Source: Ginglymostoma cirratum
Lineage: Eukaryota
Direction of reading: 5' to 3'
Assembly (NCBI GenBank): GCA_024137785.1
Contig: JAHRHZ010000088.1
Location: 9,382,064 to 9,446,063 of the forward strand
Length of the DNA stretch: 64,000 bases
Positions 4,598-58,832 of the stretch are shown one piece after another; positions within the stretch are counted from its first letter, which is position 1; each line of letters starts with the position of its first letter. The translations under genes and the position numbers were made by a program. A model generated the notes under the pieces. It had not been told where the DNA came from and ran no database searches. It worked only from the letters and a program-made list of their open reading frames with translations.

Positions 4598-4715
4598 AAC
4601 TGAGATGAGGAATAACTTCTTCACCCAGCGAGTGGTGAGCCTGTAGAATTCATTACCATAGAAAGTGGTTGAGGCCACAACATTGCTTTATCAAGAAGGA
4701 TGTAGATACAACTCT

Positions 4716-5188
4716 GAGATAACAAGGTGTAGAGCTGGATGAACACAGCAGGCCAAGCAGCATCAGAGGAGCAGGAAGGCTGACGTTTNNNNNNNNNNNN
4801 NNNNNNNNNNNNNNNNNNNNNNNNNNNNNNNNNNNNNNNNNNNNNNNNNNNNNNNNNNNNNNNNNNNNNNNNNNNNNNNNNNNNNNNNNNNNNNNNNNNN
4901 NNNNNNNNNNNNNNNNNNNNNNNNNNNNNNNNNNNNNNNNNNNNNNNNNNNNNNNNNNNNNNNNNNNNNNNNNNNNNNNNNNNNNNNNNNNNNNNNNNNN
5001 NNNNNNNNNNNNNNNNNNNNNNNNNNNNNNNNNNNNNNNNNNNNNNNNNNNNNNNNNNNNNNNNNNNNNNNNNNNNNNNNNNNNNNNNNNNNNNNNNNNN
5101 NNNNNNNNNNNNNNNNNNNNNNNNNNNNNNNNNNNNNNNNNNNNNNNNNNNNNNNNNNNNNNNNNNNNNNNNNNNNNNNNNNNNNNNN
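4716..5188 (-). mobile_element. Penelope-type hammerhead-bearing short element running into the gap; 13-bp TSD TAGATACAACTCT (4703-4715 / 5189-5201)
   Basis: Same sequence family as 20235-20341, 24645-24786 and 33661-34211; identical 13-mer on both sides. Confidence 0.75.
4789..5188. other. Assembly gap (400 N)
   Basis: Run of N. Confidence 1.
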
Positions 5189-5348
5189 TAGATACAACTC
5201 TAGTGGCTAAATGGATCATGGGATATGGGGGAATGTCAGGATTAGAGTATTGAGCTCAATGATCAGCCATGATCATAATGAATGGTGAACAGGCTCAAGG
5301 GATCAAATGGCCCAATCCTGATCCTATCCTCTATATTTCTGTGTTTCT

Positions 5349-6421
5349 ATGGGAAAAGGAATGTTTTAGAAAACAAAGATAGTTGAAGTGTTGTTGCACT
5401 TTGTGAAGCCGGTTACCGACACTTACTATAAGTGCTGTTTTACAGGAGGTGTAAAATCCTGTAATTGAGATTTAGACAGTGTTAAGTAGCTCATTGGTCA
5501 GCGGAGTGGTGATCAGTTGCCAATGACAAGCACTTCCTGCCTAGCAACACCTGTGTGATTGGCTCCAAGGTGAACAACTCGTGAGAATGAGCAATATAGC
5601 CAGAACCCTTCAGACCTCTGGGGGACAGAATTTAGTGTTCTTCTCTCTGCAGTTATTAAAAAAACTAAAGCCTGAAGAAAGCCACTGTACGTTAGAGACT
5701 TGATAGTTTATGAACCAGTTGCTCTGCCTCCTACAAAGAACTATGAAACACCCAGGGGAGAAACAGACTGATGAACAACAAGTCCTGACAAACAAACAGA
5801 GCATTTCAGTGAACCCTGTGGGCAGGGGCCATTGAACTACCTTCCCAGGTTTACCCTCCATTCATGACACCAATGTTTCATTTGTCTGTCTGTATTTGTT
5901 TGTAGAGGAATTTTATAAAGGGTTCAGAGTTTTAACTATTTCTACTGGCTGGGCAGTCTTAGTCTAAAAGAAAGGACCAGAATCTTCAGGAGAGATGTTA
6001 GGAAGCACTTGAATGCACAATGGGTGGTAGACCAGTTGTTAATTTTAAGTCTGAGGTTGGTAAATTTTTGATAGCAAAGGTTCTGAGGTATATGGGCCAA
6101 AGGGAGGCATATAGAGTTAGGCCACAGTTCAGCCACGATCTCATTGAATGGCAGAACTGACTTGAGGGGCTGAATGTTAACTAGTAGAGTCATATATTGA
6201 CAGTTCACAGTTGTTTATCAAGAACAAGTGTCTATTTATTCATAATAAATAGTAATTCTTGTTAACTACAGAAACCTGGTCGGTGACTTGTGTTAACTTA
6301 AGTCTACAAAGGCAGCTAAATTGGAAAATGTTGCATATTTTGATAAAATCTTTAATTTTTGTGACAACTCTGGGAATAATGGGGTTTAATTTCTAGCGTG
6401 CCACCCCAGTGAGGTATGACA
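5349..6421 (+). mobile_element. 5' LTR of a Gmr1-like Gypsy element (5' edge lost; CR1 3' end inserted at ~5945-6190)
   Basis: Ends ...GTATGACA and is followed by a degenerate tRNA-Pro-like PBS (TAGGAGGCTTAATCTGGATT vs TGGGGGCTCGTCCGGGATT). The start ATGGGAAAAGGA...GTTGAAG...ACTTACTATAAGTGCTG aligns with 12904-12990. Confidence 0.7.
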
Positions 6422-6777
6422 ATCTTAGGAGGCTTAATCTGGATTTATTTTGAAACACAGGCAACAAGGATTTGTGTGTTGACTTATAAGTAACACAGAT
6501 GAAGGAAAATGCCAAATTCTATACTGCATTTAAGACATGACACTAGAAATGTCAAAGGATTTCCTGCAGGTGGCAGAGTTGTCCCCAGCAGTCTGAAGGG
6601 AACTTAGAAAATCCAAGGTGATTGAATTGCTGGGTAAACTGGAGGGAGCATTGCCTAGCAGAGCAAAGAAGGCAAATATGACTGCAGTACATGCATGGTA
6701 CTAATGTTTAGAGGAAATACAAGTGAGACCAAATACTCTAGGCATTGAAACCTCGGAATCAGGTGATATTCAAATCA

Positions 6778-6863
6778 CTTTGAAACATCAAAACGTCAGC
6801 TTTCTTGCTCCTCTGATGCTGCCTGGCCTGCTGTGTTCCTCCAACTCCATACTGTGTTATCCC
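6778..6863 (+). mobile_element. Truncated Penelope-type element with 12-bp TSD ATATTCAAATCA (6766-6777 / 6864-6875)
   Basis: AAACGTCAGCTTTCTTGCTCCTCTGATGCTGCCTGGCCTGCTGTGTTCCTCC matches 24688-24740. Confidence 0.75.
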
Positions 6864-6875
6864 ATATTCAAATCA

Positions 6876-8344: not shown

Positions 8345-9230
8345 ACAAGTGTTTGGCATATCTTTGTTAATTGAGGCTCAGAAAGCAGATCCAGAGTTAA
8401 GTAAATTGCACAGACAGCTGACACTGCAGCTGAGGTTGAAGGAGTTCAGGAGTGCTATTATAATAAACATGGAATTCCAATGGGGAAGTGGAATCATCCT
8501 CTTAGAGCTGCAGGCAAAAAATGGATGGTTGTTTACCAGGTTGTGCTACTGACATATTGCAAGTATGGCAGAACATATAGGACAATGGAAAACGTAGGCA
8601 TTGATAAACAGGAATTTTAAATGGCCAAGACTTCATAAAGATGTAGTGCAATTCTGTACAATGTGTCATAGATGTCCTAGGGTTGGAAAACATCAAAATG
8701 TATTCAAACCAGCACCTTTGATACCCAAAACAGTTTTTGAAGAACCATTTAGTTGCATGTTAGTCAATTGTGTGGGACTATTACTGAAAACAAAAGCAAG
8801 GCATAATTATTTTCGTGCAATTATGGATATGACAACTTAAGCCCCAGAAGCGATTCCTTTAAGAATAATTACAGTTAAGGTGGTAATAGAAAAGTTAACT
8901 CACTTTTTTACTGGTTTTGGATTATCAATTGAAATACAGTGTATTCAAGGTCCTAACTTTATAAAGTTTTCCAGGAAATCATTAGCAGTTTAGGTGTAAA
9001 ACAATTGAAGTTACTACAATCTACAAGCACAGGGACTTTGAAGAGATACTATCAGACTCTCAAAACCATGACTAAAGCATAATGTCACGAATGCCCACAG
9101 GATTGTGACAAAGGATTAGATCTAATTGCTACCAGAAACTACCCAAATGAATCTATTGGCGTCAGTCCATTTGAATTGATTTATGGTGATTAAGGAGATG
9201 TTCTAGAAATAAAAAGCCAAATCCTTAATG
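8345..9230 (+). mobile_element. Gypsy integrase relic (upstream of RT)
   Basis: ORF 8601-8840 reads WPRLHKDVVQFCTMCHRC...KPAPLIP..FEEPFSCMLVNCVG (HHCC finger plus start of the catalytic core), followed by PEAIPLRIIT, QGPNF and QGTLKRYYQTLKTM. Confidence 0.9.
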
Positions 9231-9234
9231 TTGG

Positions 9235-11310: not shown

Positions 11311-11334
11311 CTTTTGTGTGGCTTCAGGAAGGCA

Positions 11335-12700
11335 ATGGCCAAGGTGATATTATTGCTAGACTGTTAACCCAGAAACCCTGGGTTGTCTATGGTAATGGGA
11401 AGATTTTGCAAGACTGCTTAGATGATAATCTTGAGAGACATATATCTGGAATTATTGCATCTACTAGGCATGATGTGGACATAAGGAGAGTCCAATGAAA
11501 CAGCATCCTTATTTGTGATCCCAGTAGAACAAGCATGAGTGGAAACAGAAATGCAGTACGTGGAAATCAATTTGCTTGAGCCTCACCAAAGTTTATCGGT
11601 AATGTTAGTTCCTTAACAGGCTGGATCAACCAGATTCATATAGGCCATATAAAAGGAAATGAAGTCACAAGACAGATTTGTACTCCATTCCATGGTGGTA
11701 TTGATAGGTTTGCCAGTGCCTCTTCCTTTATGAGATTGATATATTGAAAGGGTACTGGGAAGTGCCATTAACATTAATGAGTAAAGAAATGTCCACTTCT
11801 GTTACACAAAATGGATTATACCAATGTTCAATAGTGCCATTTAGGTTAAAGAACTCCCCAAGTGTAATCCAGAGACTTATTAATCAAGTCATAGCTGAGA
11901 TCCAAATGTACAGGTTATTTTGATGATGTTGTGATATACAGTAACATATGGAAAGAGCATGTGGGACTTGTCTAAGTAATTACGGTTGGCTGGCTTACTC
12001 ATAAATTTAGCCAAAAGTGAATTTGCAAAAGCAAGAGTAACTTATCTAGGATGCATTGTAGAACAATGACGTGTGTTGCCAAAAAAAGTGAATGTGAAGG
12101 CTCTAATAGAATTCCCTGTTCCTAGAACTAACTGAGACATTGAGAGGATTATACTGTATGGGTTTTATTTGAACTTTTTGCATAATTTCAGCACAGTAGC
12201 CGTAACTTTAACAAATTTGTTAAAGAAACAAACAGAAGTGGTATGATCTGCAGTATGCCAGGCAGCCTTTGAGAAACTGAAGGAAATCCTAAGAAGTGAA
12301 GCAGTATTGATCACCCCTGCCTTTTTCCAGACCTTACCAAACAGCGATTGATGCTAGTGACTTGGGGATATGTGGACTCTTGGTGCAGGATAATGAGTCT
12401 GGAATACAAAAGTCAGTAGAGTACTCCCCTAAGAATCTAAAGCAGTATCAGAAGAAGTACTCTGCTGTAGAAAAAGAGACATCAGGAATGCTATTGGCTC
12501 TTCAACATTTTGAAGTTTATGTCCAAAATGATAACTAGCAAACATTAATTTACAATAATCATAACATACTGGCATTTGCTGAAAATTTTAAAATGCAAAA
12601 TGCAAGACTATTCGGACAGAGTATCTTGTTTCAACCATTTAATGTAAAAATTATTGGAAAAGGTAATGTAATTACAGATGCATTATGCTGAGTGTAAAAC
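11335..12700 (+). mobile_element. Gypsy RT and RNase H relic
   Basis: LKGYWEVPL (~11746), VPFRLKNSP (~11835), YFDDVVIYSNIWKEH (~11916), AIDASDLG (~12344), KYSAVEKE (~12455), QHFEVYV, GKGNVITDAL (~12656). Confidence 0.9.
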
Positions 12701-12866
12701 GTTGGAATACATTAAAGGTTTAAGAAATGCTAAGATGGTATAAGGACTTATAAGGTTGAAAGAAGGATGAATGAATGTAAAGCTTGTGTGCTTGTTTTTA
12801 TATATTATGTATTTTATAAAGAAGTACCTTTTTGAAAGGGTATTTCATTGTATAAGAGTGGAGACC

Positions 12867-13000: not shown

Positions 13001-13019
13001 TTCTTTATTCAAACAGTGG

Positions 13020-17490: not shown

Positions 17491-17494
17491 CAAC

Positions 17495-19400: not shown

Positions 19401-20234
19401 CCTTATATATGACCTTAATAACATTAAACCTAAAAAAAAGGATGTTTCAGTAGCACCTTATATATAAAATAAAAAACTGAAGTTTTTAAATAAGAAGTTG
19501 CATTTTCATTCTGGAAAGTCCTGCACGTGGTCAGCTCCAGAGAATTTTTTTTTCAAAGAAACCTTTGCAATGTTTAATAAAATGCCCTCGATAATACATA
19601 CAGATTTTTTTTCAATTTCTGATTTAAGAATTGGGGAAAAAAACCTCTGCCATTCACTGTAGACCCTTAAAAAAAGTTCAAAAAAAGACCATTTGAAAAA
19701 AAAAGATTTTTTTTGTTTAGTTTTTTTTTGAATGTTAATAAAACAAATTGGAAAAGAATCTTATTTTAGTAAACTAAAATTACTATGATAACAAAAAACT
19801 GCAATAAATCTTTAACTAAGCCTGCAATCTAAAAACAGCTGCAAGTTCCACACTGCTCCTTCTGTGCAGACTCAATATCTTGCACACCATTGCCTGCTGT
19901 ATGAGAGTTATGAATCATAATAACTAAAGCATTGTGTGTAAGGAGAGATATATTTGCCATTTATGATGTGCAATGAAGGTTCACCAGACTGATTCCTGAA
20001 TGGCAGGATTGTCTTATGATGAGAGATTGAAGAGACTGGGACTGTATTCTCTGGCAGTGAAGAATCGGAGGTAATTTCATTGAAACTTACAAAACTGGAT
20101 CAAACTCAGGAATAAGAAAGGTGCAGTCAATGTGATGGTGTTATGATGTAGGCCTCCCAATAGACAGTGGCAGATGGAGGAACAAATATGTAGGCAGATC
20201 ATGGAAAGATGCAAAAACAGCAGAATTATTGTAG

Positions 20235-20341
20235 ACAACAAGGTGCAGAGCTGGATGAACACAGCAGGCCAAGCAGCAACAGAGGAGCAGGAAAGCCGAC
20301 GCCTCGGGCCTAGACCCTTCCCCAGAAATTATTCCCCAAAG
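20235..20341 (-). mobile_element. Penelope-type element with mutated hammerhead core; 9-bp TSD TTATTGTAG (20226-20234 / 20342-20350)
   Basis: The reverse complement reads CTGGGAAGGGTCTAGGCCCGAGGCGTC, compared with intact CTGAAGAAGGGT....ACCCGAAACGTC. Confidence 0.75.
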
Positions 20342-22390
20342 TTATTGTAGTTGGTGATTTTAACTTCCCCAATTTTGAGTGGGACACCCTTAGTGCTAGG
20401 AGGTGAGATGGGGCATAATTTGTTCAGTGCTTCCAGTAGGGTTTCTTGAAACAAATTGTACGTAGTCTAACTAGGGAAGCAGCCGTACTAGACCTTGTAC
20501 TAGGGAATGAGCCTGGCCAGCTGATTGAAGTTTCAATGGGGGAATGTTTTTGAAATAGCAATCATATTCCATAGGTTTTAAGATAGTTATAGATAAGGAT
20601 AAGACCGTTCCTCAGATGAAAGTTCTAAATTAGGGAAAGGCTAATTACAACAGTATAAGGCAGGAACTGGAGAAATTGGATTTGGGCTAGCTGTTTGACA
20701 GTAAATCCACATCTGATATGTGGGAGTCTTTGAAAGGCCAGTTGATCAGAGTTCAGTACCAGGACGTTCATGTGAGGATGAAGGATAATGAGGGCAAGGT
20801 TTGGGAAGGCTGGATGACAAGAAATATTGAAAGTTGAGTCAAAAAGAAATAGGAAGCATATGTAAAGTTTAGACAACTCAAATCAGACGAGGCCCTTGAA
20901 GAATATACAGAAAGCAGGAAAGAACTTATGCAATGAATTAAGAGGGCTAAAAGGGCCCATGAAATGTCTTTGGCAAATAGAATCTCAAGGCAGATAATAC
21001 ATATATTAGGTGTAAGAGGGTAGCTAGGGAATGGGTTGGTCCACTCAAGGACAGAGGAGGGAATTTATGCATGGAGCCAGAGGAATTGAGTGAAGTTCAT
21101 CATGAGTAATTTGCGTCAGCATTCACCAAAGAGAAGGAACGGCTGTTGGTAAAAATTAGGGAGGGGTATTTTGATAATCTAGGTCATGTTGGTATTAAGA
21201 AAGAGGTGGTGTTGGGTGTCTTGAAAAATAATAAGGTGGATAGGTCCCCATGTCCCGATGGGATCTATCCCAGGACTGAAAGAAGCAAGAGGGGAGATTG
21301 CTGGGGCCTTCACAGAGATCTTTGCATCCTCTTTAGCAACAGGTGACATTCCAGCAGACTGGAGAATAGCCAATGTTGATGCTTTGTATAAGAAGGGATA
21401 ACCCTGGAAATTATAGGCAGGTGAGCCTTACGTCATTGGTAGGGAAATTATTGGAGAAGATTCTTAGGGACAGGATTTAATCACATATGGAGAAGGATGG
21501 ACTTAGTAGGGATAGCCAGCTTTGTGCAGGGGAGCTCTTGTCTAGCAAATTTGATGAAGATTATTGATGAGGGTAGGGCAGTGGATGTTGCCTACATGGA
21601 TTATACTAAAGCAGTTGACAAGGTCACTCATAATAGGCTCTTCCAGAAGATTAAGTTATATGGGATCGACAGTGAGTGGTAAATTGGATGCAAAATTGTC
21701 TTGGTCATGGAAAGCAGAGCGCAGTTACAGAGGGGATTGTTTCTGACTGAAGGTCTGTGATCATTGGTGTTCACAAGGATCAATGTTGGGACACCAGTTG
21801 TTCGTAATGTGGATAAATGATTTAGATGAACATGTAGTAGTCTGATTAGTAAGTTTGTAGCCAACATGAAAATTGGTGAAGTTGTGTTAGTGATGAAGGC
21901 TGTCATACAGCAGGATGTAGATCAGTGGAAAGTTGGCTGGAGAAATGGCAGATAGAATTTAATCTGGACGAAGTGTGAGCATTTTGGGAGGCCAATTCAA
22001 GAGCAAAGTATAGAGTAAATGGCAGGATCATTAGGAGCATTGATTTACAGAAGGATTTTGGGGTGTAAGTGGCAACACAAGTGGAAAAGGTGGCAAAGAA
22101 GGCATTTGGCATGCTTGTGGTATACCTCTTTTGCACCCTCTCCAAAGCCTCCACAACATTTTTATAGTGTGGCAACCAGAACTGCACACAATACTCCAAA
22201 CGTGGCCTAACTAAAGTTTTATACAGCTGCAACATGACTTGCCAACTTTATACTCAATGCCCTGATTGAAGGAGGGAAGCATGTGTTGCGACTTACACCC
22301 CAAAATCCTTCTGTAAATCAATGCTCCTAATGATCCTGACATTTACTGTATACTTTCCTCTTGAAGTGTATGAGGTATAAGGAGAGGTTG

Positions 22391-24644: not shown

Positions 24645-24786
24645 GGGAATTTTCAGGAAAGATTTTCTGAAGAAGGGTCCCAACCCGAAACGTCAGCTTT
24701 CCTGCTGCTCTGATGCTGCCTGGCCTGCTGTGTTCCTCCAGCTGCACACTGTGTTATCTCTGACTCCAGCATCGGCAGTTCTTCTC
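24645..24786 (+). mobile_element. Penelope-type short element carrying an intact hammerhead core
   Basis: Same family as the other copies; inserted into a minus-strand CR1. Confidence 0.8.
24654..24704 (+). ncRNA. Minimal type I hammerhead ribozyme motif (predicted cleavage after GUC at 24694)
   Basis: CUGAAGA (24667-73), A, stem II GGGU/ACCC with CCCA loop, GAAA (24687-90), palindromic ACGU, C. CAGGAAAG (24654-61) is complementary to CUUUCCUG (24697-704). Confidence 0.65.
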
Positions 24787-32400: not shown

Positions 32401-33660
32401 CATTAGTTTCCACGCAATTGAATCCACTCCCCACCCCCAACAATTTAGTTTAAAACTCTATCTGCAACCCTAGTTGTGCAATTCACCAGGACTCTGGTCC
32501 CAGCATTATTCAGCTGAAACCCGTCTTATCAGAACAGCTCCCTCCTTCCCCAGCACTGGTGGCAGCATCCCATGCATTCAAACACATTTCTCCCACACCA
32601 GTCTTTCAGCCAGGTGTTTATCTCTTTAATCTTGTTGACTCTGTGCATATTAGCTTGTGGCTGAGGTAGTAATCTGGAAATTATTGCCTGTTTTTGGTTT
32701 TGCTTTTAAATTTAGCTCTTAGCTACTCACATTCCCCCAGCAGAGCATCTTTCCTCTTTCTGCCTATATTGTTTGTGGACCGCAACAACTGGAGCTTTTC
32801 TCTCCCGGTCCAAGTTCTTCTGCAGCCCAGAGGAGATATCCTGAACCCAGGCACCAGGCAGGCAACACAACCTTCAGGACTCTCAATCCTGGCCATAGAG
32901 AACAGTGTCTATTCCCCTGACAATACTATCCCCGATTACAACTGCGTTTCTTTTTGCTTGCCCTCTTGAATGGCTCCTTGTACCACAGAGCTATGGTGAG
33001 TTTGCTTATCCTCATTATAGCCCCTCCCTCTCATCCACACAGGGAGCAAGAATCTCAAACCTGTTAGGAAAGCTGCAGGACTGAGGCTCCTTCTGCACGA
33101 CCTCCTGGATCCCTCCATCTGACTCGCTCATTGTCACACCCTCCTGTCCCTGGCCACTCACCAAATCTGAGGTAGTTAATGTAAAGCGTGTAATAAAAAC
33201 AGAAGTTGCTGGAAAAGCTCAGCAGGTCTGGCAGCATCTGTGAAGGATAAATCAGAGTTAACATTTCAGGTCCGGTGACTCTTCCTCAGAGAGGCATTTT
33301 TTTTCCTTCGCAGACGCTGCCAGACCTGCTGAGACCCAAGGGCACACCCTCAGAGTGAAGAGACAACCCTTTAGACCTGATGTGAGGAGGAAGAATTTCT
33401 TCACCCATAGGGTTGTGAATCTGTGGAAGTCATTGCCACAGAAGGCTGCTGAGCTTTTCCAGCAACTTCTGTTCTTGTTCCTGATTTACAGCATCCGCGA
33501 TTCTTTTGGTTTTTATTTAACATAAAGGGTGTGACTGCCTCCTGAAACACAGCATCCAGGAGACTTTTCCACCTCTCTGATGTTTCGCAGTGTTCGAAAC
33601 TCAGGCTCCAGCTCATCATCTCTGAGCCAAATTTCCTCAAGCAACCAACACTTGCTACGG
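29410..33660 (-). mobile_element. Near full-length degenerate CR1 (ORF1 esterase, ORF2 endonuclease and RT, 3' tail)
   Basis: ORF1 GDSIVRGID..CCLPGA.VQDI at ~32820-32935; ORF2 SQHGFIEEMSCLTNLLECF (30451-30678); RKNFFTHRVVNLWKSLP near the 3' end. Confidence 0.9.
33192..33522. mobile_element. Palindromic Penelope-type element (second subfamily) with a degenerate hammerhead on the minus strand and a 117-bp templated insert
   Basis: Inverted arms ACAGAAGTTGCTGGAAAAGCTCAGCAG / CTGCTGAGCTTTTCCAGCAACTTCTGT; minus strand CTGAGGAAGAGTCACCGGACCTGAAATGTTA; imperfect TSD TAAAGCGTGT / TAAAGGGTGT. Confidence 0.8.
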
Positions 33661-34211
33661 AGATAAAAGGTACTGCAGATGCTGGAGAATCCGAGATAAC
33701 AAGCATGGGGCTGGATGAACACAGCAGGTCAAGCAGCATCATAGGAGCAGGAAAACTTGACGTTTCNNNNNNNNNNNNNNNNNNNNNNNNNNNNNNNNNN
33801 NNNNNNNNNNNNNNNNNNNNNNNNNNNNNNNNNNNNNNNNNNNNNNNNNNNNNNNNNNNNNNNNNNNNNNNNNNNNNNNNNNNNNNNNNNNNNNNNNNNN
33901 NNNNNNNNNNNNNNNNNNNNNNNNNNNNNNNNNNNNNNNNNNNNNNNNNNNNNNNNNNNNNNNNNNNNNNNNNNNNNNNNNNNNNNNNNNNNNNNNNNNN
34001 NNNNNNNNNNNNNNNNNNNNNNNNNNNNNNNNNNNNNNNNNNNNNNNNNNNNNNNNNNNNNNNNNNNNNNNNNNNNNNNNNNNNNNNNNNNNNNNNNNNN
34101 NNNNNNNNNNNNNNNNNNNNNNNNNNNNNNNNNNNNNNNNNNNNNNNNNNNNNNNNNNNNNNNNNNATGATGCTGCTTGACCTGCTGTGTTCATCCAGCC
34201 CCATGCTTGTT
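33661..34211. mobile_element. Palindromic Penelope-type element spanning the gap; 14-bp TSD AACACTTGCTACGG (33647-33660 / 34212-34225)
   Basis: 33697-33742 and 34167-34212 are inverted copies of each other on either side of the N run. Confidence 0.8.
33767..34166. other. Assembly gap (400 N)
   Basis: Run of N. Confidence 1.
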
Positions 34212-35999
34212 AACACTTGCTACGGGTTGCCCTGATGTTGTGTGGCTTTGAACAACTGTGAGAAGTTATTATGTGCCTGGACTCTCGCTTTAGAAATGAC
34301 CTTTATCAGAAATCAGACAATTTAACTGGAAAAGATCTATTTTCAAGCAATGAATTGGCTGACAGGGATGTGATAGTATCAGCTGTATAAAAATGGCCTG
34401 GTAAGACTCGCAATTATATCTAACTATTACAAAGAAAATCCTGCTGTTAATATTTGCCAACAAGATTAAGCTTTCTGCTATAAGAAATTTTCATTGGACC
34501 AATGCTCCAGAAGCAAGTTAGAAATGTTCATGTGAGAAAGATGTGTTACAATACTTCACGAACATTAGATTAAAATGTATATTTTAAAGTTATCTACTTT
34601 TGGGGATATGGTATGTAACAATTGTGTTACTGGATTAGTAATTCAGTAGGCTTGGCTACTGAGAATGTAAGTTTAAATCTAGGGAAAGTGCTTTAAGAAT
34701 TAGAATTCAGTTTTAAAAATAAATCTGGATGTGAAAGACTGACTTGACTACTGTCTACCAAATTGACCCTGAACTGAGCTTTGAACACTGAACACTGTGA
34801 CACATCAGGGAGCAGAAGAGTTACTTGGATATTACGTTTCAGGAGGCAGTTACACCCTTTTGATTAACCCCCTTAAATTCAGGCTCTTGCAAGAAATTAC
34901 CACAGTCCTACCAGACCACAGAGTTCATTAGCGAGAGACAAATGGCAATGGTTTAACCTGACGGTCACCATGCCTCAGATGAGAGGAGATGTTGAGAAGG
35001 CAGGATTTTTGTGGTAACCTCAACGGGTGTGGAGATTGAACCCACAGTGTTGGTGTTGCTCTGTGTCACCAACCAGCCATCCAGTCAACTGGGTGAATCC
35101 AAATGGTTCACTGGGTCATTTGCGCAGAGTCAGGAGAAATCCCAGTTTTGCAAACCCAGCATTAAAAATGGCTGCTTGTACTTCCCATTTTTGGTCCAGG
35201 ACAGGGTTCAGAGTTAGGATGGGCAACCACGAATTGTGGAGGAGGTTGCTGGTATTTGAGGTGGGCAAGGGGACACCAGCACTTTGCAGAAAGTTTAAAG
35301 GTTAAAACATAAAATATCTTTCCTGCTCTCACCCCCTCACTCTCAATATATCATCTATTCCAACTCATGCCATCTTATGCCCTATACTTACTCTCCAGCC
35401 CGCAATCCCTCCAAGCCAATCTATGCTCCTTTTCCCTACCCCCTATGGCCCCACCTGGGCCAATTTATACTCACCTGCTGCTCTATGTCCATTTACCCAT
35501 TTTGCATGGCCCCTCATGCTATCTATATTCCCATTCAACCCCCTGGCTGTTTATATACCCTATACAGCCACGCCCACTACCCTTTTCCTTTCCCTATCCA
35601 AGACAACTAATGCCCACCTTGGGCATACCTCAGGAGGCATGCAAACAGAAAATAAACATATGTGTCTATTGATACTATCACTATTAAAAAAGACACTTGC
35701 ATTGATACAAAAATGAATCAATACATTGAAATTCTTCCAAATTCTTCAAGCAAACCAACATTTCTTAAGTGCTTAATCCCTGATATAAACAAACATTTTC
35801 ATTCTATACACAGTTGGAAATGCCCATCGAAATGCTGACTTGATATACCTTTTGTGAAAATTGTAGTCCAAGAAATCAGTCATGCAGGACAAATTCTAAA
35901 ATGATTTTTGTCAACGGGAACTCTAAAGTACTGAGCACTTTTTTTTTACTCTATGCATTTGTTTGGACGGTTCCTTGACAGTTTTGGCAGTTCCTATAC

Positions 36000-44289: not shown

Positions 44290-44435
44290 TTCAAGTTCTG
44301 AGGAACGGACACTGGAACTGAAACACCAACATTGCTTTCTCTCCACAGATGCTGCCAGACCTGCTAAGTTTTTCCAGCAATTTCTGTATTTGTTTCAGAT
44401 GTTCTGTATCATAATTTTTTTTTCTTTACTTATTT
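44290..44435 (+). mobile_element. Penelope-type element with degenerate hammerhead
   Basis: CTGAGGAACGGACACTGGAACTGAAAC ... CTCTCCACAGATGCTGCCAGACCTGCTAAGTTTTTCCAGC. Confidence 0.7.
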
Positions 44436-47564: not shown

Positions 47565-47695
47565 GTTGATTCTGAAGAATTATATTGGACTCGAAATGTT
47601 AACATACTCCACAGAGGCTGCCAGACCCGCTGGGTTTTCCCGGCATTTTTTGTTTTTATTTCAGCTCTACAGCAACCACTGTATTTTACTTGATT
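47565..47695 (+). mobile_element. Penelope-type element with degenerate hammerhead (MTG2 intron 1)
   Basis: CTGAAGAATTATATTGGACTCGAAATGTTAAC...CTCCACAGAGGCTGCCAGACCCGCTG. Confidence 0.7.
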
Positions 47696-49128: not shown

Positions 49129-49257
49129 ATGTGGCATGTAATCTGTTGGTATATTTTCAAGCCAACAACACCGGTACGAAGATTCTCCATAAGTTGTTTG
49201 AAATATGCCAAAGCTCGAGGCCTCAGGAAGAAGAAAGAGCTTTCTGAAAAGAAACTG
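49129..49257 (+). CDS. MTG2: MTG2 coding exon 1 (mitochondrial presequence): MWHVICWYIFKPTTPVRRFSISCLKYAKARGLRKKKELSEKKL
   Basis: Ends in the conserved LSEKKL with phase-0 donor GTAATA; basic N-terminus with an R-x-F-x-x-S processing motif; in-frame genomic stop at 49105. The start codon is less certain than the 3' end. Confidence 0.8.
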
Positions 49258-50249
49258 GTAATATTAATCAGACTTCTTTCTTAAAATCTTCAGATGTCTT
49301 TGTAACTTTGAAAGACATGCATTTATAAGATAGGAAAAGGAATTGTATTAGCTGTATAATGGCTAAGAATGTTCATTGATTCTGTAGCCAGCAGCAGCTG
49401 AATGATGGTAGCTATTTATTACAATTAAACCTGTTCACAGATTCAATGTGAAGATTTGTGCTGGAATTTGTGGTTGTCAGAGAAACCAGCAGCGTGATAT
49501 TCTCTTCAATGGACATTGGATCTGTGTCTCTTTAACTAATCAAATTGAACAATACTTACTGAAACACGCAGAGTCTAAACAGGTAAATTTAGGTTAGTTA
49601 ATGTTGAATAATGTGCATACAACAAAGTAAAGGTAGGAAAAAGTAGTGGATTAAACAAAATCTGAACAAATAAGACTTCACACTTAACTTTCAGTGCCAA
49701 AGAAGTTGCTTGGTGGATTTATGATGCTGTTCAATTTGATTGGAAAAGCACAAAGTCTTCTTTTTCTAGTATGCTTATTAGATTCTAGTGGCTAAGTTCT
49801 ACAACTGCATGCCCTTTCATGTGTTTGAAAATCAAGTCTCTCAGAGAAGTACCAGTGTAGCTTGGCTTCAAACATGAACAGGGCAACCCTGAAAGCAATT
49901 TCCTGATTTTTAGCAATTTAATTGTGCGCTATAAAAGCTGGAAATTGCTCTCTTATTTACTCTTTAATCACAGTGAGTGCTATAACCGCACCATTTTTAT
50001 TACCACAAAACCCAGGGCATTGTTTATAGTGCTCTCTATGATCAAAATCATGAATTACCAATAAATGTGGGTGTCCACAGTCCCATAAATGTATGTACAT
50101 AAAGTTCTCTTATAAAAAGGAAGGCTATTTTTGATATCTTTTAAGGGAATTTATACATATGGTTAGTTTACTTCCTTTTAAGGAGGAGCTTTTTTCTAAA
50201 ATACTGGGATTATAACATAATTTATAGCCATAAATTTTTTATCATTTAG

Positions 50250-50397
50250 ACCCGTTACTTTGTGGATCATCGGAAAGTCACTGCATATGGAGGGAGAGGT
50301 GGTGATGGAATATGCACCTTCCACAGTGAGCCCCGCAAAGAGTTTGGAGGACCTGATGGTGGAAACGGAGGGGATGGAGGACATGTCATTTTAAAAG
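50250..50397 (+). CDS. MTG2: MTG2 coding exon 2 (Obg glycine-rich fold)
   Basis: TRYFVDHRKVTAYGGRGGDGICTFHSEPRKEFGGPDGGNGGDGGHVILK; TAG acceptor, GTAAAA donor; 148 nt. Confidence 0.97.
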
Positions 50398-52114
50398 GTA
50401 AAATGTTTCTTTTGATTGGTGAGTGGTGCTTACATTCCAGGAGATGCCTGTATTTATTTGTTATCATCATTTGGCTGTTTGACTATGAAGGGCATTGTAA
50501 TCAACTCTGAACCCGATGTGTGCAAAACTTCTAAAATTTACTAATTCTACACAGTGCAGGATCGAATCTGGTTATAAGGCTCAGTTATTCACTGGACATA
50601 CTCCCAAGCTGTTCAGAAACACCTGAGTGATGACGTGTCTTTTAAGAAAAGACTAGAGCCTGTACTGCTGATGCTGATTGGGGCCTGGGGCCTCACCTGC
50701 TCCTTCTACGAACTATGTTTTAATTTTTATTGCTGCTTTTGTGTATTTTAATAATTCTTTTAAAATTTATACTTTTAACCTACGGTAAAGGAATAAGGTT
50801 ATAAATTTTTTTAAAAGCTTTATGATTGAACACTGAGGGTTATTATTAATTTTGATTAATCCATTTTAAGTTATTTGCTTTCTTAACCAAATAACCATTG
50901 TGTCTCAATTTTCATTATGCCATCCACTTTATAATATTTTGCATGAAACCTGCAGTCTAGGTATACAGAAGAATGCAATTATGTAGCAGAATATAATAAA
51001 GCCATATAGGAAAGATTGGTACGATGTTACTCACATTCTAAAGAAAATAAAATGAATGTCTATAATACCTTGAATGACCTCTAAATGTTCCAAAGCACTT
51101 CAGAGCTAATGAAATATTTTACAGTGTAGCCATTGTGGTACTGTAAAGAAATGTGGTTATCAATTTGTACACAGCAAGGTTTCAGAAACAGTATTGAGAT
51201 TAATAGCTAGGTATGTTTAACGTTTTTAGCAGGGTTAAGTCACATATGCTTATTATGATGCATCATAGTAGCAGAAATGTCTTGTAGTAAGCTATGGGAG
51301 AGGCCAAATTGACTCTGTTTGCTGATTTGAGACTGCAATACATGACATAGATATGGGTACAGCATAGTGTTCTTTGGAGCTTGAGATTCTTGAGTGACCA
51401 GCTATGAAGATCTCTTTTGTCTGATGTTTGGTGAAGGATAAATATTGTTGGGGATACCGGGAGAGCACCTTTTGATCCTTCTTATATCATGCCATTGATC
51501 CATATGTGCACCTTGAGGGCAGACAGGACTTCTGTTTCATAAAGGTTGGTATAATTCTAAACACAACATTATCATAGATTGGTCAAAATCCTGTCGAATT
51601 AGACATTAAAGAATTTCCTATTTGCATTTCTAGATTCAAAATTGGAAATAATCAAGAACAAATGAGATGATTAAAGTGCATTATAAACATTGTAACCTTG
51701 TATTTAGTTTGTTTTTAATGCTATCTCAAGCTAGTTTTGGGCAATACAAAAAATAATCCTAAACAGCTTTCCAGAATAAAATGGTGATGTGAAGAAATGG
51801 TGTTGTTCTGTTTCACTAGTGGAACAATAATGGTTGTCACAGCGACGAAGCTTCACACTGTGTCTTCTTTATAGTGTTGCTTTGTTTGCATAGCTCAAAA
51901 GACAGCACGATACTCTTCTTTTGAGGTTTGCATCCCACCATGCAAAACATGTCATTGTTTTATTCTTATTGCTGTAGAACGTTATTGATGGTGACAGCGT
52001 GACAGCTCTACCTAAAGAAAAAACTTGTGTTTTCCTGACTTGCTAAAGAATTTAATCTCGGCCTAAGATTTTTTTCTTGTTTGGTAACTTTTAAAATTTT
52101 AATTAATTTTTCAG

Positions 52115-52230
52115 TTGCTCGACAAATAAAATCACTGTCAACCATTCTATCCCTTTATCGTGGCAATGATGGAGAATCTGGAGGAAGTAAAAACTGCTAT
52201 GGAAAAAAGGCAGCTCACACTTATATATTG
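52115..52230 (+). CDS. MTG2: MTG2 coding exon 3
   Basis: (V)ARQIKSLSTILSLYRGNDGESGGSKNCYGKKAAHTYIL; CAG acceptor, GTGGGT donor; 116 nt, phases fit both neighbours. Confidence 0.95.
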
Positions 52231-52307
52231 GTGGGTAGCTAAAAGTTCTCAATATTTAGAATTTTTGAGGTTTTATTGGCTAAATTAAATTGTTGTAATG
52301 GTCTCAG

Positions 52308-52526
52308 GTGCCACTTGGTACTGTGGTCAAAGAAGATGGGAAGATTGTGGCTGATCTCTCATCTCATGGAGAAGAATATGTTGTTGCCTATGGGGGACTT
52401 GGTGGCAAGGGCAATCGTTTCTTTCTGTCAAATGAAAATCGGGCACCAATGACCGCAACCCCTGGGGAGCTTGGTCAGGAACGGGTCTTGCAGCTGGAGG
52501 TCAGGACCATGGCTCATGCTGGGATG
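52308..52526 (+). CDS. MTG2: MTG2 coding exon 4
   Basis: VPLGTVVKEDGKIVADL...GGLGGKGNRFFLSNENRAP...LEVRTMAHAGM; CAG / GTATGT; 219 nt. Confidence 0.97.
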
Positions 52527-54368
52527 GTATGTAAAGATGCAAGCTATTCTTTGCCAATTTTTAACAATGCAGCACAATGCTGTGACTGGAAGTATATTGG
52601 TTAACCATGGAAAGCTATACTTTGTGCAACTTTGTTTCACATCTGAAGCATGGCTGTTTGACCTGTGTCTGATTTCTCATTCAAAGTATTCATCATGTGG
52701 GCAAAAGTTCAGATGTACTTTATCGTGACTAATGAAATGAAACTGTGTCTACCCTGCATTATCTTATTGAAAGCATTCTTTTTAATGATGCCTGAAAGTC
52801 CTATGACTTCCATTCAACATGATTTGCCAATGAATCAATGCATTTGCACTTGATACTAATAACTTGAATAATGTCAGTACTGAGTGTTTTAATTGGAAAG
52901 GCATTTTTGTTGGGAAGTTACTGACAAATGTAACTTAAAAAATTACCTGTTTCACATTTTCCTTCAGCATCATCTCCAGTACCTGAGAGAACAGGATGAC
53001 TCCTACCCTGAGTCCTTAATTAACTGTTAGAAATTGACCAAGAGCAGCCAATAGCTTATCCCTTCCGAATTCCCCCTACTGCTCATCTTTTTCTTTTGCA
53101 TCAAGCTGTTTATATATTGGTTGACAAATGTCATACCTTTTAAACAAACCATTAATATTTTTAATCATTGTTATCTCTGTGCTGCACTAGATAAGCAGAT
53201 TCAAAGTGGAAACCAGTAAGAGATTGGCTGAGTGATGAGTAATTTATAATGACTTAGCTCATCACCTACTTCATGGTGGAATAAATTAATGCAAAAATTT
53301 GCATTTATATAGCACTATTCGAGACTTCCTAAACCACTTTAAAGTCAATTGTGTGCAAGCACAGTTGCTGATATGAAGAAACGTGGGAGTCGATTTAAAT
53401 TTCCACAAATGCAATGAGATAAAAGACAAGATAATCAGGTTTTCATTTTAAAGTGATATTAATTGCAATAAACTGCTTAACAGAATTGTGTCTATTCTTG
53501 ATGGATCTGTTTGAAATTATAAGCATCACTTATCACCATCAAGAGATATTTGCACCACTGAGGCCAGCAGAGTATAGCCATAGTCTTGTCAGATGGTGTG
53601 GTTGCCATAGCACCAACACCAATGAGAAGGGAGCTATCTGATTCTCTATGGTAGTTTTCATTGAATGACAGCTCAAAAAGCCAATCCTACAAAACCAGCA
53701 GCTGAAGTGACAAGCAGTGATACTAGGCTTTTGGCTTCTTTTCTTAGTTTGCGACATGAGGACAGTTGGAGTGAAACAGCAAGACAGACAAAAGGGTCTT
53801 GCTTTTCTTTTAACCATAACAAGGCTGTCAGAAACCCTAGACTGAATCATTAATGTACAGTATATGGCATGTAATTTGTTAATTTGATATTTATGCAGAA
53901 TCTTGGGAAATAGTTAAACCTGCTACACAAACGGTAACCTGACTATTCATGTCTTTAATTCAAAATTGCCAGCTTGTTGGTTTGTAATTATCCCCATCAC
54001 ATTAGATTGCTTAGTTCTCTCATACGGAATGTAGGAGCAATCAGTATGGGAGTGTGTCTGAAATCAGTCAGGGAACAGCCTTAGGCTGACTGGGAAGAGT
54101 CTTAGTAACTAAGTTTGGCTTTTGATGAGCGAAGTAAGAAGATTGAAGTGGAACAGGTTTTACCAAGATTACTTTGTTTTGACCACATTGCCGTAGCAAA
54201 GACTTTTTTACAGGATTTATTTTCAATATTTATTGAAACCATTGGCTGCTGTTATCTTTTGAATTGCTTTGTTTAAAACTTTTTATTTTAAAAAATTGAT
54301 TAAATGCATTTATTTTGGTCCAGCATCACTTGACAAGAAAATTTAACCTTATTTTCTATTGTGGTAAG

Positions 54369-54507
54369 GTTGGTTTTCCCAATGCTGGAAAATCCTCTCT
54401 TCTGCGAGCAATCTCAAATGCCCGGCCAGCAGTAGCAGATTACCCATTTACTACATTAAACCCTCATGTTGGTGTGGTACACTATCAAGACTTTGAGCAG
54501 ATTGCAG
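54369..54507 (+). CDS. MTG2: MTG2 coding exon 5 (G1 and G2 motifs)
   Basis: [35 protein letters not shown]; AAG acceptor, GTAAAT donor; 139 nt. Confidence 0.97.
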
Positions 54508-54929
54508 GTAAATCATGCTGTTACAAGCGCATTTTTACATTGCTTGTTTTCTGTTTGAAATTGACATAAAATTGAGTTGCTACCTTGAAAGTTTAATAGT
54601 GCCTTTTCCTCCTCTTAAGAAATAAGTCTGATAGTTGTCTATATTTTTGGGGAGAAGTGCTTCTAACCCAGGATTTGTATTTTGGATTCCATTATCTTTT
54701 CACCTATATCTGCTCTGCTGCTGCCTTCTTGAATGCTGGACTTTTTGGCGGGGTATGTTTGTGCAGTTACCAGTTGCTGTTTTGTAACTTGCTTACAAGA
54801 CAGTGTTTTGCATGTGAGCCTTCACGAGCAAGTTAGAACAAAAAAGTTATAGCTTTGATCAGTTTCAAACATCATTTCAACCTTTTGATGAAGGTGGGAC
54901 CCTCTATTCACTTTTTCTGTTCACCCCAA

Positions 54930-55160
54930 TAATAAAAGCAAAATACCGTGCATGCTGGACATCTGAAACAAACACCGAGAAATCTGAAGAAATTCAGCAT
55001 GTCTGGAAATGTTTGTGTGGAGAGAGACAGAGTTAATGTTTCGAGTCTGATTTGACTCCTCAGTTCTGAAGAAGTTATTATCAGACTCATTGTCAATTCT
55101 GTTTTTCTCTCCACAGATTTTGCCAGATCTGCAGAGTTTCTCCAGCAGGTTTTGTGTTAT
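54930..55160. mobile_element. Palindromic Penelope-type element with two back-to-back degenerate hammerheads (last MTG2 intron)
   Basis: Minus strand CTGAGGAGTCAAATCAGACTCGAAACATTA; plus strand CTGAAGAAGTTATTATCAGACTC; inverted arms. Confidence 0.75.
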
Positions 55161-55818
55161 AACTACCACCTTGATCTTAAAAAGAGTGCTACAGTTTGGT
55201 TTCCTTTCCAACAACAGAACTAAAATCAACCCAATGAAAATACTGATGATCTGTGTATCAGGCATAGAGGACATGGTTTACTTCTCAGCTGCTCCACAAT
55301 GTTGAATAACTAACCAGTCATTAAGGGTCCGTTTCTGTGCGGTATGACTCTATAAATGCCTTAACTGTTCAGGTTTTACCAAAAGGCATTTTTCAAGACT
55401 ATAATCAGACAAAATAGAATTGACTCTAAGCGAAAGAAAGAGGAAGAGATTAGAAGAAACAAGGTGACCAAAACATACAATCAAAAAGTAGGTTTTTAAG
55501 CACTGTAGTGGGATGCAACAAGAGAGAGGTTTAGGGCTGAGATGGCTGAAGGAACGACTGCTAGTAGTGGGCTGAAGAAAGTAGACAATTTGGAAGAGTT
55601 TTACAGTTTAAAAAAAAAAGGTAATCTTTCAGGGCTGGTGTATTTTTTTTAACAGTTTGAACAAAACATGTCTCCAACAAAGGTTTTATTGCTTTAAAAT
55701 CCATTATGTCTATGCCTATATCGGTTGTATTTTAAAATAAGGGACAAGATTTCTTATACATCTTTTTTACATCACAAACTAACTGTAATTGCTGTAATTG
55801 TGCATTTCTTTTCTGCAG

Positions 55819-56216
55819 TTGCAGATATCCCAGGAATCATCAGAGGGGCTCACAGAAACAAGGGCCTAGGAATTGCTTTCCTGAGACACATTGAACGTTG
55901 CCGCTTTCTACTGTTTGTGCTCGATCTTTCAAAGCCAGAACCTTGGCAGCAGCTGGAAGATTTGAAGCATGAACTCGAGCAATATGATAGAGGATTATCA
56001 GAGAGACCATTTTGTATCATTGGGAACAAAATAGACCTTCCAGAGTCCAAAACCAACCTTGTGCTGTTTCGAGAAAAATTAAGGCAGCATGTAATAATTC
56101 CAGTATCGGCACTAACTGGTGCAAATGTTGAAGAACTTATATTGCATCTCAGGGAACTTTATGATGGATACCTGGAGGATGCCCGAATTAAAGGCTGCAT
56201 GCCAGTCAAGTGGTAA
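55819..56216 (+). CDS. MTG2: MTG2 last coding exon (G3 DIPG, G4 NKID, G5 SAL); spliced CDS 1149 nt = 382 aa
   Basis: (V)ADIPGIIRGAHRNKGLGIAFLRHIERCRFLLFVLD...GNKIDLP...PVSALTGAN...PVKW*; six exons join in frame. Confidence 0.97.
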
Positions 56217-56244
56217 AATTATACTTGGGGAAATATAGCTTCAA

Positions 56245-56258
56245 AATAAATTATTAAA
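56245..56258 (+). terminator. Candidate proximal MTG2 poly(A) signals AATAAA and ATTAAA
   Basis: About 30 nt after the stop, followed by GU/U-rich TTGTGTGATTTCTTTTGTT. Confidence 0.45.
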
Positions 56259-57210
56259 CTTGTCAAAAAGTTAAATTGTGTGATTTCTTTTGTTCTGAAC
56301 AGAAAGCGTTGTAGACTTTACGTTCCTTTACTACATTATATCTCTTCAGAACTGCATATTATCATCAGTGCTTTGTTGCAATGGAAATAAGGTTTCTACT
56401 GATGTCTATCTAGCATCCGCAATTCACAAAGAAAATAATCCTGATTTATTCACATACAGAAAGGATTGTTTTTTAAAAAACAAACTGGATAATTTATAGC
56501 ATGACATTCAGAAGTGAAGCATGATTGGAAAGAACAGGTGAATTTGTCCATTGGTTCGCAAAGCTCTCCACCATTGTTGAGATGGGTGTTGCGGGGGTGG
56601 AGTGGTGTTTTCCTTATCTCATGCTTCTGTTTGTTTGAGATAGAGATTAATCGCTTTGATTAGATAAAATCTGAAATTTTGCCACATAATGTAACCACCA
56701 GGAGGGTAAAAGGTGAACTAGATGGACTTGGGCTTTTTTTGCATCTAGCAATTCTTGTATTTCTATGTGTCTTACAGGTTTTGTAAATTATTTTTGGTTC
56801 ATTGTACATCTGGTTTTTAATACTCTTAGCATGTCTTTTAAAACAGCATTGCAGACAATGAATTGGTTTTAAGTGCAGTCATTGTAATGTAGGAAGGTAA
56901 GGCAGTCATCTTCAGCACAGAAATTTCTCACAAATTGTAATGAGATAAAAGACATTTAATCTGTTTATTTCATTCACTGATATTTAAGAAAATATTGTTT
57001 CATTTTAGCCACTCTCTCGGATAACTTTTAGGCAATGTAGAAAAGTATGAAGATACTTATTCAAATTTCCAACACTGAGTTAGTTTGTTTTTGGTTAAAG
57101 TGGAATGTCAGTTCTTAGGGTGCTTTTTTTTTATTTGCAAAGGTAAGTTGTGATCTGTCAGAGACCAACAGTGATGGAGTGAGTTTGAGGCAGGGAATAT
57201 CTACTATACA

Positions 57211-57400
57211 CTAAAAACAAAAAACTGAATACTGGAGATCTGAAATAAAGAGTGCTGGAGAAACTCGTCTGGCAGTATCTGCAGAGCGAGAAACCGAGTT
57301 AATGTTTTGAGTCCTATATGATTTTATGACTTCGCAACATATTGGATTCAAAATTTTACCTGTATTTCTCTCTGCACAGACTGTGCTGGATCTAAGTTTC
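57211..57400. mobile_element. Decayed palindromic Penelope-type element
   Basis: AGTGCTGGAGAAACTC...GGCAGTATCTGCAGAGCGAGAAACCGAGTTAATGTTTTGAGTC, with an inverted arm TTTCTCTCTGCACAGAC. Confidence 0.65.
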
Positions 57401-58699
57401 TCCATGATGACCTTATTTAATACAGTGTACGTTTGCTGGCTGGAGCTCAACTTTTCAGAGATTGGTCTGTGCACTTACACATGAAGCTCTTCACCTTGAA
57501 ACTTGTATTGACTTGAGTTAGATGTGTTTTTATTGTTTTATCATTTATTCCAACATTTAATTGTAAATGCCCGATACGTCTGAGGATTCCTTGAGATGGT
57601 TTTAAAGTTTATTTAGGCAAGGCACTGGAATCATACCTGATTTGTGTCACGTTCAAGTGGTGTGTAAACTCCTGCTCCAACAAGTCTCACTTCACTTCTC
57701 ATGTGACCTACTGGGGCCTGACTCAGATTTTGCGCTGAATATTTAGCATTGCAGTGATTTGTAAAGAGTTGAAAGTATCCTTAAAATAGTTTGGAAAACA
57801 GATAATGTTTTAAGGTTTTATTATCAGTTTGGACAGCTTGTGTAAATTGTACAATTTGGCATGTTGCAAACATAAAAGAAGTGAATGAACTTAAGCAAAC
57901 CATGATGAAGAATTTGATCAAAAGCATTAATAAGCTGTTTAAATTGAAAGTTTACTGGAATCAGAATGTTGCAGTACTGAGGGAAGCTGCTTTTTTGGAT
58001 GTGCGAAAAGGTAATTAATCCAATATCCCCATCGTTTCCATATGATCACCTGCAAATGTTTCCTTCTGAAGAATATTGAACTCCCTGCTGAAAGTTTATA
58101 TCAAATCAGCCTCAATTACTCTTTCAGCCAGTACATTCCAAATTCTAACTTTGTCCTTTTTTGTTTCAAAAAAAGCCCCTCATTTTGTTCTGCCAATTAC
58201 CTTAACTGTGTGTACCCTGGTTCCTGACCAAGCTTGTCAGTGGGAAGAATCTATTTATTTGCAAAATCTGTCATTTAGGATATCACTTAGCTGTCTTGGT
58301 TGTCAAGAGAACAATCTCAGCCTCGCTGGTCACATCATGTAACTGAATTCCCTCAGCTCTCATGTAATTATGGTAAATGTCTCATTCCCTCACATTCTCT
58401 TTAAAGTGTGATGCCAGAATTGAACACAGTGCTCGAGCTAAGAAGGTATAACCTCTGATTTATGAAGGTGCATCATAATTACCTTTTGGCTTTCTACCTC
58501 TATATAAAGCCAAGGATCCCAAATGCATGTTTTAACATGGCCTTTGTCAAATTACCCTGCCATCTTCAAAGGTGAACCCTTTGAACCCTCTGGGCTCTTC
58601 CTGCACCCGCTGTAAAATTATAAACACTTAATTTCTGTTGCCTAACCACATTCTTCCTTTTCTACTTCACACTTCTCACCATTATGCTTTATTCCGTGG

Positions 58700-58832
58700 C
58701 TCTAAAGAAGGGTTACTGAACACAAAACGTTATCTCCTGCTTTCTCTGCACAGATGCTGCTAGACCTGCTGAGTTTTCCCAGCAATTTCAGTTTTTATAT
58801 CTGATTTTCAGCATCTGCAGTTCTTTTATTCA
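58700..58832 (+). mobile_element. Penelope-type element with degenerate hammerhead, inside an old minus-strand CR1 remnant (~57960-58900)
   Basis: CTAAAGAAGGGTTACTGAACACAAAACGTTA...CAGATGCTGCTAGACCTGCTGAGTTTTCCCAGC. Confidence 0.7.

Follow-up and report, generated by a model that had tools for sequence, protein, structure and literature searches.

Short solo and inverted inserts of probable Penelope-like origin, with mostly decayed hammerhead motifs, in a Ginglymostoma cirratum contig

What are the short, related, hammerhead-like inserts scattered through one stretch of shark DNA, and does their spread depend on a working ribozyme? The question is raised by a 64,000-nucleotide window of Ginglymostoma cirratum (GCA_024137785.1, contig JAHRHZ010000088.1, positions 9,382,064 to 9,446,063 of the forward strand), in which an initial annotation, made from the sequence alone, had described eleven copies of a hammerhead-bearing, retrozyme-like family and had suggested a derivation from Penelope pseudo-long terminal repeats (pLTRs). 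In our judgement the copies are probably short solo or inverted pLTR inserts from a presumed shark lineage of endonuclease-positive (EN+) Penelope-like elements (PLEs), most of them decaying neutrally.

The family, its ends and its palindromes

All eleven loci, named here by their annotated starts, are present and mutually homologous by blastn, with expect values (E) down to 2.6e-25 within subfamily A and, between subfamilies, of 2e-7 (33661 against 58700) and 9e-6 (24645 against 58700). The division into two subfamilies was also borne out when each copy was compared with a leave-one-out majority: the members of subfamily A (4716, 6778, 20235, 24645 and 33661) diverge from it by 7-14%, and those of subfamily B (33192, 44290, 47565, 54930, 57211 and 58700) by 15-28%; subfamily A is the younger. 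The loci comprise 15 arms in 16 pieces, one arm having been split by a later insertion, and span 1588 of the 63,200 sequenced bases (2.5%). A profile built from the arms found no further copy in the window: its 16 strong matches are its own training pieces, which match by construction, and the next match has E=0.87, with a best of E=1.3 in the reversed-window control. The elements and their immediate features are as follows.

4703..4715 and 5189-5201, plus strand: 13-bp target-site duplication (TSD), left copy and right copy, the latter directly after an assembly gap; the host is the 3' part of a CR1/L2-type long interspersed nuclear element (LINE)
4716..4788, minus strand: subfamily A arm with an untailed 3' end; 5' hammerhead half hidden in the gap at 4789-5188
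6766..6875, plus strand: subfamily A copy 6778-6863 with 12-bp TSDs (6766-6777 and 6864-6875); untailed
20226..20350, minus strand: A>G-hypermutated copy of subfamily A (20235-20341), untailed, inserted in a LINE endonuclease frame and flanked by 9-bp TSDs; C3 at 20325
24645..24784, plus strand: subfamily A copy, tailed, with a complete minimal hammerhead; C3 at 24667, G12 at 24687; no TSD
33182..33532, unstranded: subfamily B palindrome; 10-bp TSD with one mismatch (33182-33191 and 33523-33532)
33334..33453, plus strand: later 120-bp insertion of a LINE piece in the right arm of the 33192 palindrome
33647..34225, unstranded: subfamily A palindrome with 14-bp TSDs (33647-33660 and 34212-34225)
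44292..44432, plus strand: single arm of subfamily B that keeps its core boxes but has a broken U16.1 and stem II; tail seen only in the alignment
47570..47688, plus strand: single arm of subfamily B that keeps its core boxes but has a broken stem II; tail seen only in the alignment
54930..55160, unstranded: subfamily B palindrome of a tailed arm 54930-55065 (minus) and an untailed arm 55062-55160 (plus), with CUGA boxes 2 nt apart
57211..57404, unstranded: old palindrome of subfamily B with its centre in stem II; CUGA absent from both arms, left arm tailed by alignment only
58698..58832, plus strand: tailed single arm of subfamily B, with mutations at G5 and G12 of the core

Four perfect direct repeats had been noted, and all four (13, 12, 9 and 14 bp, each in subfamily A) abut element ends at lengths beyond the null expectation: among 1500 random pseudo-elements, a perfect repeat of at least 9 bp arose in 0.4% and one of at least 10 bp in none. 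One copy of the repeat at 20235 restores the host LINE endonuclease frame, and a paralogue of the host at 4716 leaves room for a single copy. A fifth duplication, at 33192, has its single mismatch in 10 bp (null 2.7%). The description of the family as TSD-flanked holds for five loci. Candidates at 24645, 44290, 54930 and 57211 are at chance level, and those at 47565 (8 bp, null 1.4%; possibly 8-10 bp, overlapping the 5' end) and 58700 (7 bp, null 6%) are weak. Tabulated together, the lengths are variable (9, 10, 12, 13 and 14 bp), which leaves a miniature inverted-repeat transposable element (MITE) with a fixed TSD unsupported.

The 3' ends fall into two groups. Measured from a conserved ATG block, those of the 15 arms (7 fixed by TSDs, six of these being short-side or long-side ends with perfect or near-perfect repeats; the others set by eye) lie at +28 (one), +43 to +48 (six) and +74 to +86 (eight), and none lies in 49-73, an empty interval of 26 nt (p=0.006 against a uniform distribution). 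The two main classes are about 30-35 nt apart, giving untailed arms of about 125 nt and tailed arms of about 160 nt, and the 30-35-nt tail is common to both subfamilies. The 5' ends are also clustered: with boundaries set by eye, eight of the 12 visible ones are found no more than about 6 nt upstream of C3, the other four inside or after the motif. Copy 6778, for example, begins at the GAAA box (about 6790), without the CUGA half. None of the 12 coincides with the cleavage site, a coincidence that the initial annotation had proposed to check; the nearest is about 7 nt downstream. No 5' end runs further upstream, and the upstream flanks of the copies share no homology with one another.

Head-to-head palindromes, with both 3' ends facing outward, occur at four of the eleven loci (33192, 33661, 54930 and 57211), so that "often palindromic" is accurate for these; 24645 retains a short fold-back remnant of a palindrome centre at its 5' end, any partner arm of 4716 would fall in the gap, and single arms are seen elsewhere. 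At 24645, about 230 bp of the host LINE are missing, as measured against two paralogues, and a deletion may have removed a left arm. The 33192 palindrome joins an untailed arm with both core boxes (33192-33296, minus) to a tailed, 5'-truncated arm (33296-33333 plus 33454-33522, plus strand). At 33661 a tailed arm (33661-33766, minus) is separated by the gap at 33767-34166 from an untailed one (34167-34211, plus), and the arms are 46/46 identical. The gap-free palindromes 33192, 54930 and 57211 fold far better than shuffled sequences (z of -8.1, -6.3 and -5.3), whereas the five single-arm copies do not (z -0.7 to +2.2). One arm is tailed in all four two-armed loci (chance about 0.06), with one of the four tails seen by alignment only. 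Both assembly gaps of the window fall inside elements of the young subfamily A (chance about 6e-4); each is exactly 400 N, and the length and content of 4716 and 33661 rest on them. A search of the window for tandem units returned three unrelated short arrays only, and none of the elements is circularly permuted.

A decaying hammerhead and an edited copy

Only 24645 carries a complete minimal hammerhead, with both boxes, U16.1, a stem II of 4 bp that includes G10.1-C11.1, and the palindromic CG; cleavage is predicted after position 24694. It fits the consensus for dispersed minimal hammerheads of metazoan PLE pLTRs, which occur mostly as single motifs (Cervera and de la Pena 2014, PMC4209133): CUGANGA, one bulged base, which follows A9 in both, G10.1-C11.1, GAAA, the palindromic CG at 15.2-16.2, UH, and the same core layout without helix III. 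Five of the 13 arms examined preserve the two core boxes, CUGANGA and GAAA. Three of the remainder lack the CUGA half (6778 and both arms of 57211), two are hidden by gaps (4716 and 33661) and three are mutated; two further arm pieces begin downstream of the CUGA box. The 15.2-16.2 dinucleotide, readable in 12 arms, is CG in six, TG or CA in five and something else in one. Change of CG to TG or CA is the usual methyl-CpG decay of dead genomic copies, and we read these changes as such decay inside the motif.

An Rfam scan of the window found no hammerhead. The one Rfam match on the 33192 palindrome, to MIR8670 (38 bits, with a gathering score of 150), reflects the hairpin only and was set aside. 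Core columns of subfamily B are marginally more conserved than the rest (71/82 against 713/922, p=0.052), and no more so than the ATG block (151/172). The term hammerhead-bearing is therefore apt for 24645, and in part for the arms with both boxes, and was otherwise overstated; the suggestion of a very large ribozyme family does not hold in a functional sense, with one intact motif at eleven loci, CpG decay, and no covariation of the stems, as described below. Judging from these motifs, the elements are mostly ribozyme fossils rather than a demonstrated ribozyme family.

One copy bears on how the family moves. Over the columns with at least two comparator loci, five of the ten A sites of 20235 read G and one reads T, with all 61 remaining sites unchanged (Fisher p=1.9e-5, or about 3e-4 when corrected for 15 arms), whereas the other five subfamily A arms have zero or one A>G each. 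Two more A>G changes lie in the CUGA box of 20235, where the comparators are 24645 and subfamily B only. The changes strike core A6, A14 and A15.1, and most of the affected A's have A or U as 5' neighbour. ADAR, which acts on double-stranded RNA, leaves A>G changes on the RNA-sense strand as its signature, whereas G>A would be expected from APOBEC. The pattern suggests that the template of 20235 was double-stranded and A-to-I edited by an ADAR-like enzyme; it is equally possible that 20235 descended from an already edited master. This pattern supports an RNA intermediate that served as a paired template, and likewise insertion in the absence of cleavage. Among the matches listed in a literature search for ADAR-edited PLE copies, there was no paper on the subject.

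Origin of the inserts and competing explanations

The combination of a minimal hammerhead, an optional tail, inverted arms, variable TSDs and an A>G-edited copy supports the Penelope pLTR origin and RNA intermediate that had been suggested for the family. Published hallmarks of PLE insertions include an inverted 5'-truncated copy, a 30-40-bp tail that is often one-ended, and problems in short-read assembly (Craig et al. 2021, PMC8557442), as well as TSDs of 8-10 bp, a tail of 31 bp, head-to-head junctions marked by palindromes, and solo pLTRs (Arkhipova et al. 2013, PMC3846280). In Schistosoma, hammerhead pairs lie on opposite strands 100-700 bp apart (PMC4209133). The Anolis PLE protein Poseidon_Ac cuts and extends both strands, starts reverse transcription internally, at two sites between which the tail lies, and works from uncleaved RNA (Frangieh et al. 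2024, PMC11167929). The shark elements share with EN+ PLE insertions the optional tail of 30-40 bp, present at one end, the head-to-head inversion, TSDs in the range of 8-14 bp, the association with gaps, and the uncleaved template; they differ in that all visible copies are devoid of open reading frames (ORFs) and end at nearly one point upstream of the ribozyme.

By analogy with these systems, we suggest that a PLE protein made elsewhere would bind the RNA, the copied part of which would start about 5 nt upstream of the minimal hammerhead, and that its GIY-YIG endonuclease would make the staggered cut of 9-14 nt that the TSDs record. Reverse transcriptase (RT), supplied in trans or in cis together with the endonuclease, would then start inside the RNA at either of two sites about 30-35 nt apart, as in the Anolis PLE, and the choice of site would yield untailed or tailed arms. 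The sequences of the copies show that it reads through the uncleaved hammerhead and stops at, or shortly before, a fixed upstream point, presumably the RNA 5' end or a strong stop, and insertion would proceed with no need for self-cleavage. A head-to-head palindrome, usually with a tail on one arm, would result if both target strands prime or if the cDNA folds back. The edited double-stranded template further suggests that RNA is made from the palindromic copies themselves, or from sense/antisense pairs, and inserted anew.

Several observations weigh against a PLE origin of this kind. No convincing TSD was found at six of the eleven loci. The tail is individually significant in five of the eight arms called tailed, those at 44290, 47565 and 57211 (p 0.06-0.14) being visible in the multiple alignment only, and the clustering of the 5' ends depends on the hand-set boundaries. 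The stems show no covariation over nine copies (54% paired, with a shuffled mean of 58%, and no compensatory pairs), in an automatic alignment with some rows out of register and with low power at this sample size. The editing signal comes from one copy. Outside the gaps, the Penelope RT or GIY-YIG ORFs that might have been expected next to the elements are missing from the window: of the 249 stop-to-stop frames of at least 62 aa given to Pfam (from 452 of at least 50 aa), none matches GIY-YIG and none a PLE RT. Finally, protein and peptide-profile searches with the sense frames of the arms gave five and ten matches, none with RT or GIY-YIG. The conserved ATG block was also considered as the start of a PLE ORF, but apart from two repetitive proteins of no relation its profile matched only read-through models, either exonised or spurious, and the reading was left unsupported.

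The alternative that survives best is a refinement of the pLTR origin and is not exclusive with it, namely an independent, non-autonomous PLE family that resembles short interspersed nuclear elements (SINEs) and in which short or palindromic masters with a promoter of their own are amplified in trans as hairpin RNAs. We regard this as a serious contender, if short of an even chance. Both ends of the elements are stereotyped, and the A>G copy implies a double-stranded template. Three whale-shark gene models (P0122, P0123 and P0124) read through further head-to-head copies, and P0123 (subfamily A) and P0124 (subfamily B) have three identical residues at the palindrome centre despite their different subfamilies, the underlying DNA being inferred from the peptide; 24645 and 54930 fit the same centre with small deletions. 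This hints at a stereotyped junction. The centres of 33192 and 57211, by contrast, do not fit, which indicates that palindromes also arise copy by copy. Precedents exist in the internal promoter of Drosophila virilis Penelope (Schostak et al. 2008, PMC2377424) and in the non-autonomous, pLTR-forming PLEs of Chlamydomonas (PMC8557442). Chlamys PLEs such as MRC1 are likewise ORF-less derivatives; unlike the shark elements, they form head-to-tail pLTR arrays in green algae (PMC8557442). However, an ordinary PLE mRNA on which RT starts in the 5' pLTR would give the same short products (PMC11167929).

It is unlikely that the inserts are just long autonomous PLE insertions that were truncated at random from the 5' end. 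PLEs are strongly 5'-truncated (PMC8557442, PMC8969392), and the two gapped copies, with gaps of exactly 400 N, might hold ORFs. Random truncation, however, should leave a spread of lengths, whereas the visible 5' ends fall, in two thirds of cases, in a cluster immediately upstream of the hammerhead, with none further out.

A still smaller probability attaches to the proposal that the elements are non-LTR retrozyme monomers spread via self-cleaved circular RNAs. By definition, retrozymes consist of tandem hammerhead units from which circles are processed (PMC7229834; bioRxiv 10.64898/2026.07.22.740005). The latter source ties them to pLTRs, gives a mean chondrichthyan consensus of 363 bp, and reports tandem retrozymes in the one chondrichthyan genome that it covers and dispersed monomers in Xenopus. 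The shark elements resemble them in being non-coding, in their type I hammerhead motif, in their long TSDs, and in a PLE pLTR ancestry. They differ in being neither tandem nor permuted, in having no 5' end at the cleavage site, in a motif of the minimal PLE type rather than a canonical ribozyme, and in arms that are inverted rather than direct; head-to-head arms would pair together rather than build a dimeric ribozyme. Moreover, an edited RNA with a dead core was still inserted at 20235. The label retrozyme-like does not suit the family.

A cut-and-paste MITE with long terminal inverted repeats and an incidental likeness to a hammerhead would account for palindromic, short, non-coding elements and for the marginal conservation of the subfamily B core, yet it is largely refuted by the variable TSD length, and the full TSDs around single-arm copies (6778 and 20235), the unequal ends with a tail on one, and an A>G cluster that points to an RNA stage leave it a negligible chance.

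Genomic context, other sharks and significance

The window is orectolobiform shark DNA. Its host gene is MTG2 (49129..56213, plus strand), with coding blocks near 49129, 50250, 52108 and 52308 and at 54330-54506 and 55815-56213; the last-exon frame (55836-56213) shares 94% identity with Stegostoma tigrinum, 88% with Cetorhinus and 75% with Callorhinchus. Element 54930 lies within the last MTG2 intron. The rest of the window holds many broken LINE and Gypsy pieces, and apart from MTG2 the Pfam matches are RT, RNase H, integrase and GDSL/OSK fragments of LINE/Gypsy type. Among these are decayed Gypsy-type integrase, RT and RNase H fragments (8598-8837, 11708-11920 and 12311-12535) and a GDSL/OSK esterase-like fragment (18768-19244, minus strand) typical of CR1/L2 ORF1. 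A SINE-like repeat family of 316 nt, unrelated to the hammerhead elements, is represented by an inverted pair with 88% identity (14504-14819 and 22394-22709) and by 27764-27949. Within a LINE fragment, an 87-nt inverted repeat (21993-22079 and 22282-22368; 94% identical, 202 nt apart) is possibly a twin-priming inversion or a local duplication. A pattern scan of prokaryotic genomes for stray shark DNA gave 29 loci, all attributable to chance (best E 3.7).

The LINE piece that interrupts the 33192 palindrome is 98.3% identical to 29564-29683, on the opposite strand 3.65 kb away, and about 75% identical to other paralogues. Arm sequence is duplicated over 8 bp, and the right junction shows microhomology; the insertion has the look of a hairpin break repaired from a local template.

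Further copies are found in annotated models of other sharks. In Chiloscyllium plagiosum, GLE1 isoforms X1 and X2 (P0125/P0133) contain a 20-residue cassette that starts exactly at the subfamily B ATG and that isoform X3 lacks, and a Heterodontus model contains the same peptide. In subfamily B a pyrimidine tract and CAG stand directly before the conserved ATG (44330-44349 and 58735-58754), used by the GLE1 isoforms as an exon start, and a second AG-ending tract lies at the tail boundary; this arrangement might be a relic of a PLE 5'-UTR intron. On the evidence of these models, the family spans at least these galeomorph sharks and can undergo exonisation in annotated models. Expanded Penelope-like elements have been reported in the whale shark (10.1101/443036; PMC8455134), with no Penelope figure in supplement 21 of the second source. 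The searchable supplement of PMC4209133, file 1 aside, contains no shark term. Our literature searches returned no description of the shark family and no occurrence of four exact 19-23-nt family strings; Repbase, Dfam and the whale-shark repeat library, which lay outside those searches, may already name it.

The density of the family here, eleven loci in 63 kb, is far above that implied by descriptor matches in coelacanth (roughly 4,000) and Xenopus (roughly 9,000), which take intact motifs only (PMC4209133). If the window is typical, a rough extrapolation to a 3-Gb genome would put the number of loci on the order of 10^5, of which about one in eleven would keep its motif intact. With both gaps of the window falling within young copies of subfamily A, short-read assembly of shark genomes probably leaves the family under-represented. 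Young palindromic copies break short-read shark assemblies, and they create alternative exons, as in the Chiloscyllium GLE1 models.

Dispersed PLE minimal hammerheads are already known as a kind, and we believe that the value of the present family lies in mechanism. The PLE cycle has been termed largely undefined in the PLE literature, and a huge, sharp-ended family would allow an in vivo test of the two RT starts, of twin priming against fold-back, and of dispensable cleavage. The A>G copy, if general, would record germline double-stranded RNA editing of a retroelement template. More tentatively still, we propose that sharks may harbour a very abundant SINE-like partner of Penelope, a unit of 125-160 nt that extends from immediately upstream of the hammerhead as far as the internal RT starts, copied partly as hairpin RNA from palindromic masters, independent of cleavage, ADAR-edited in germline copies, and a donor of splice acceptors. 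If this is true, PLE initiation, strand priming and ADAR restriction could all be read out naturally from such a family.

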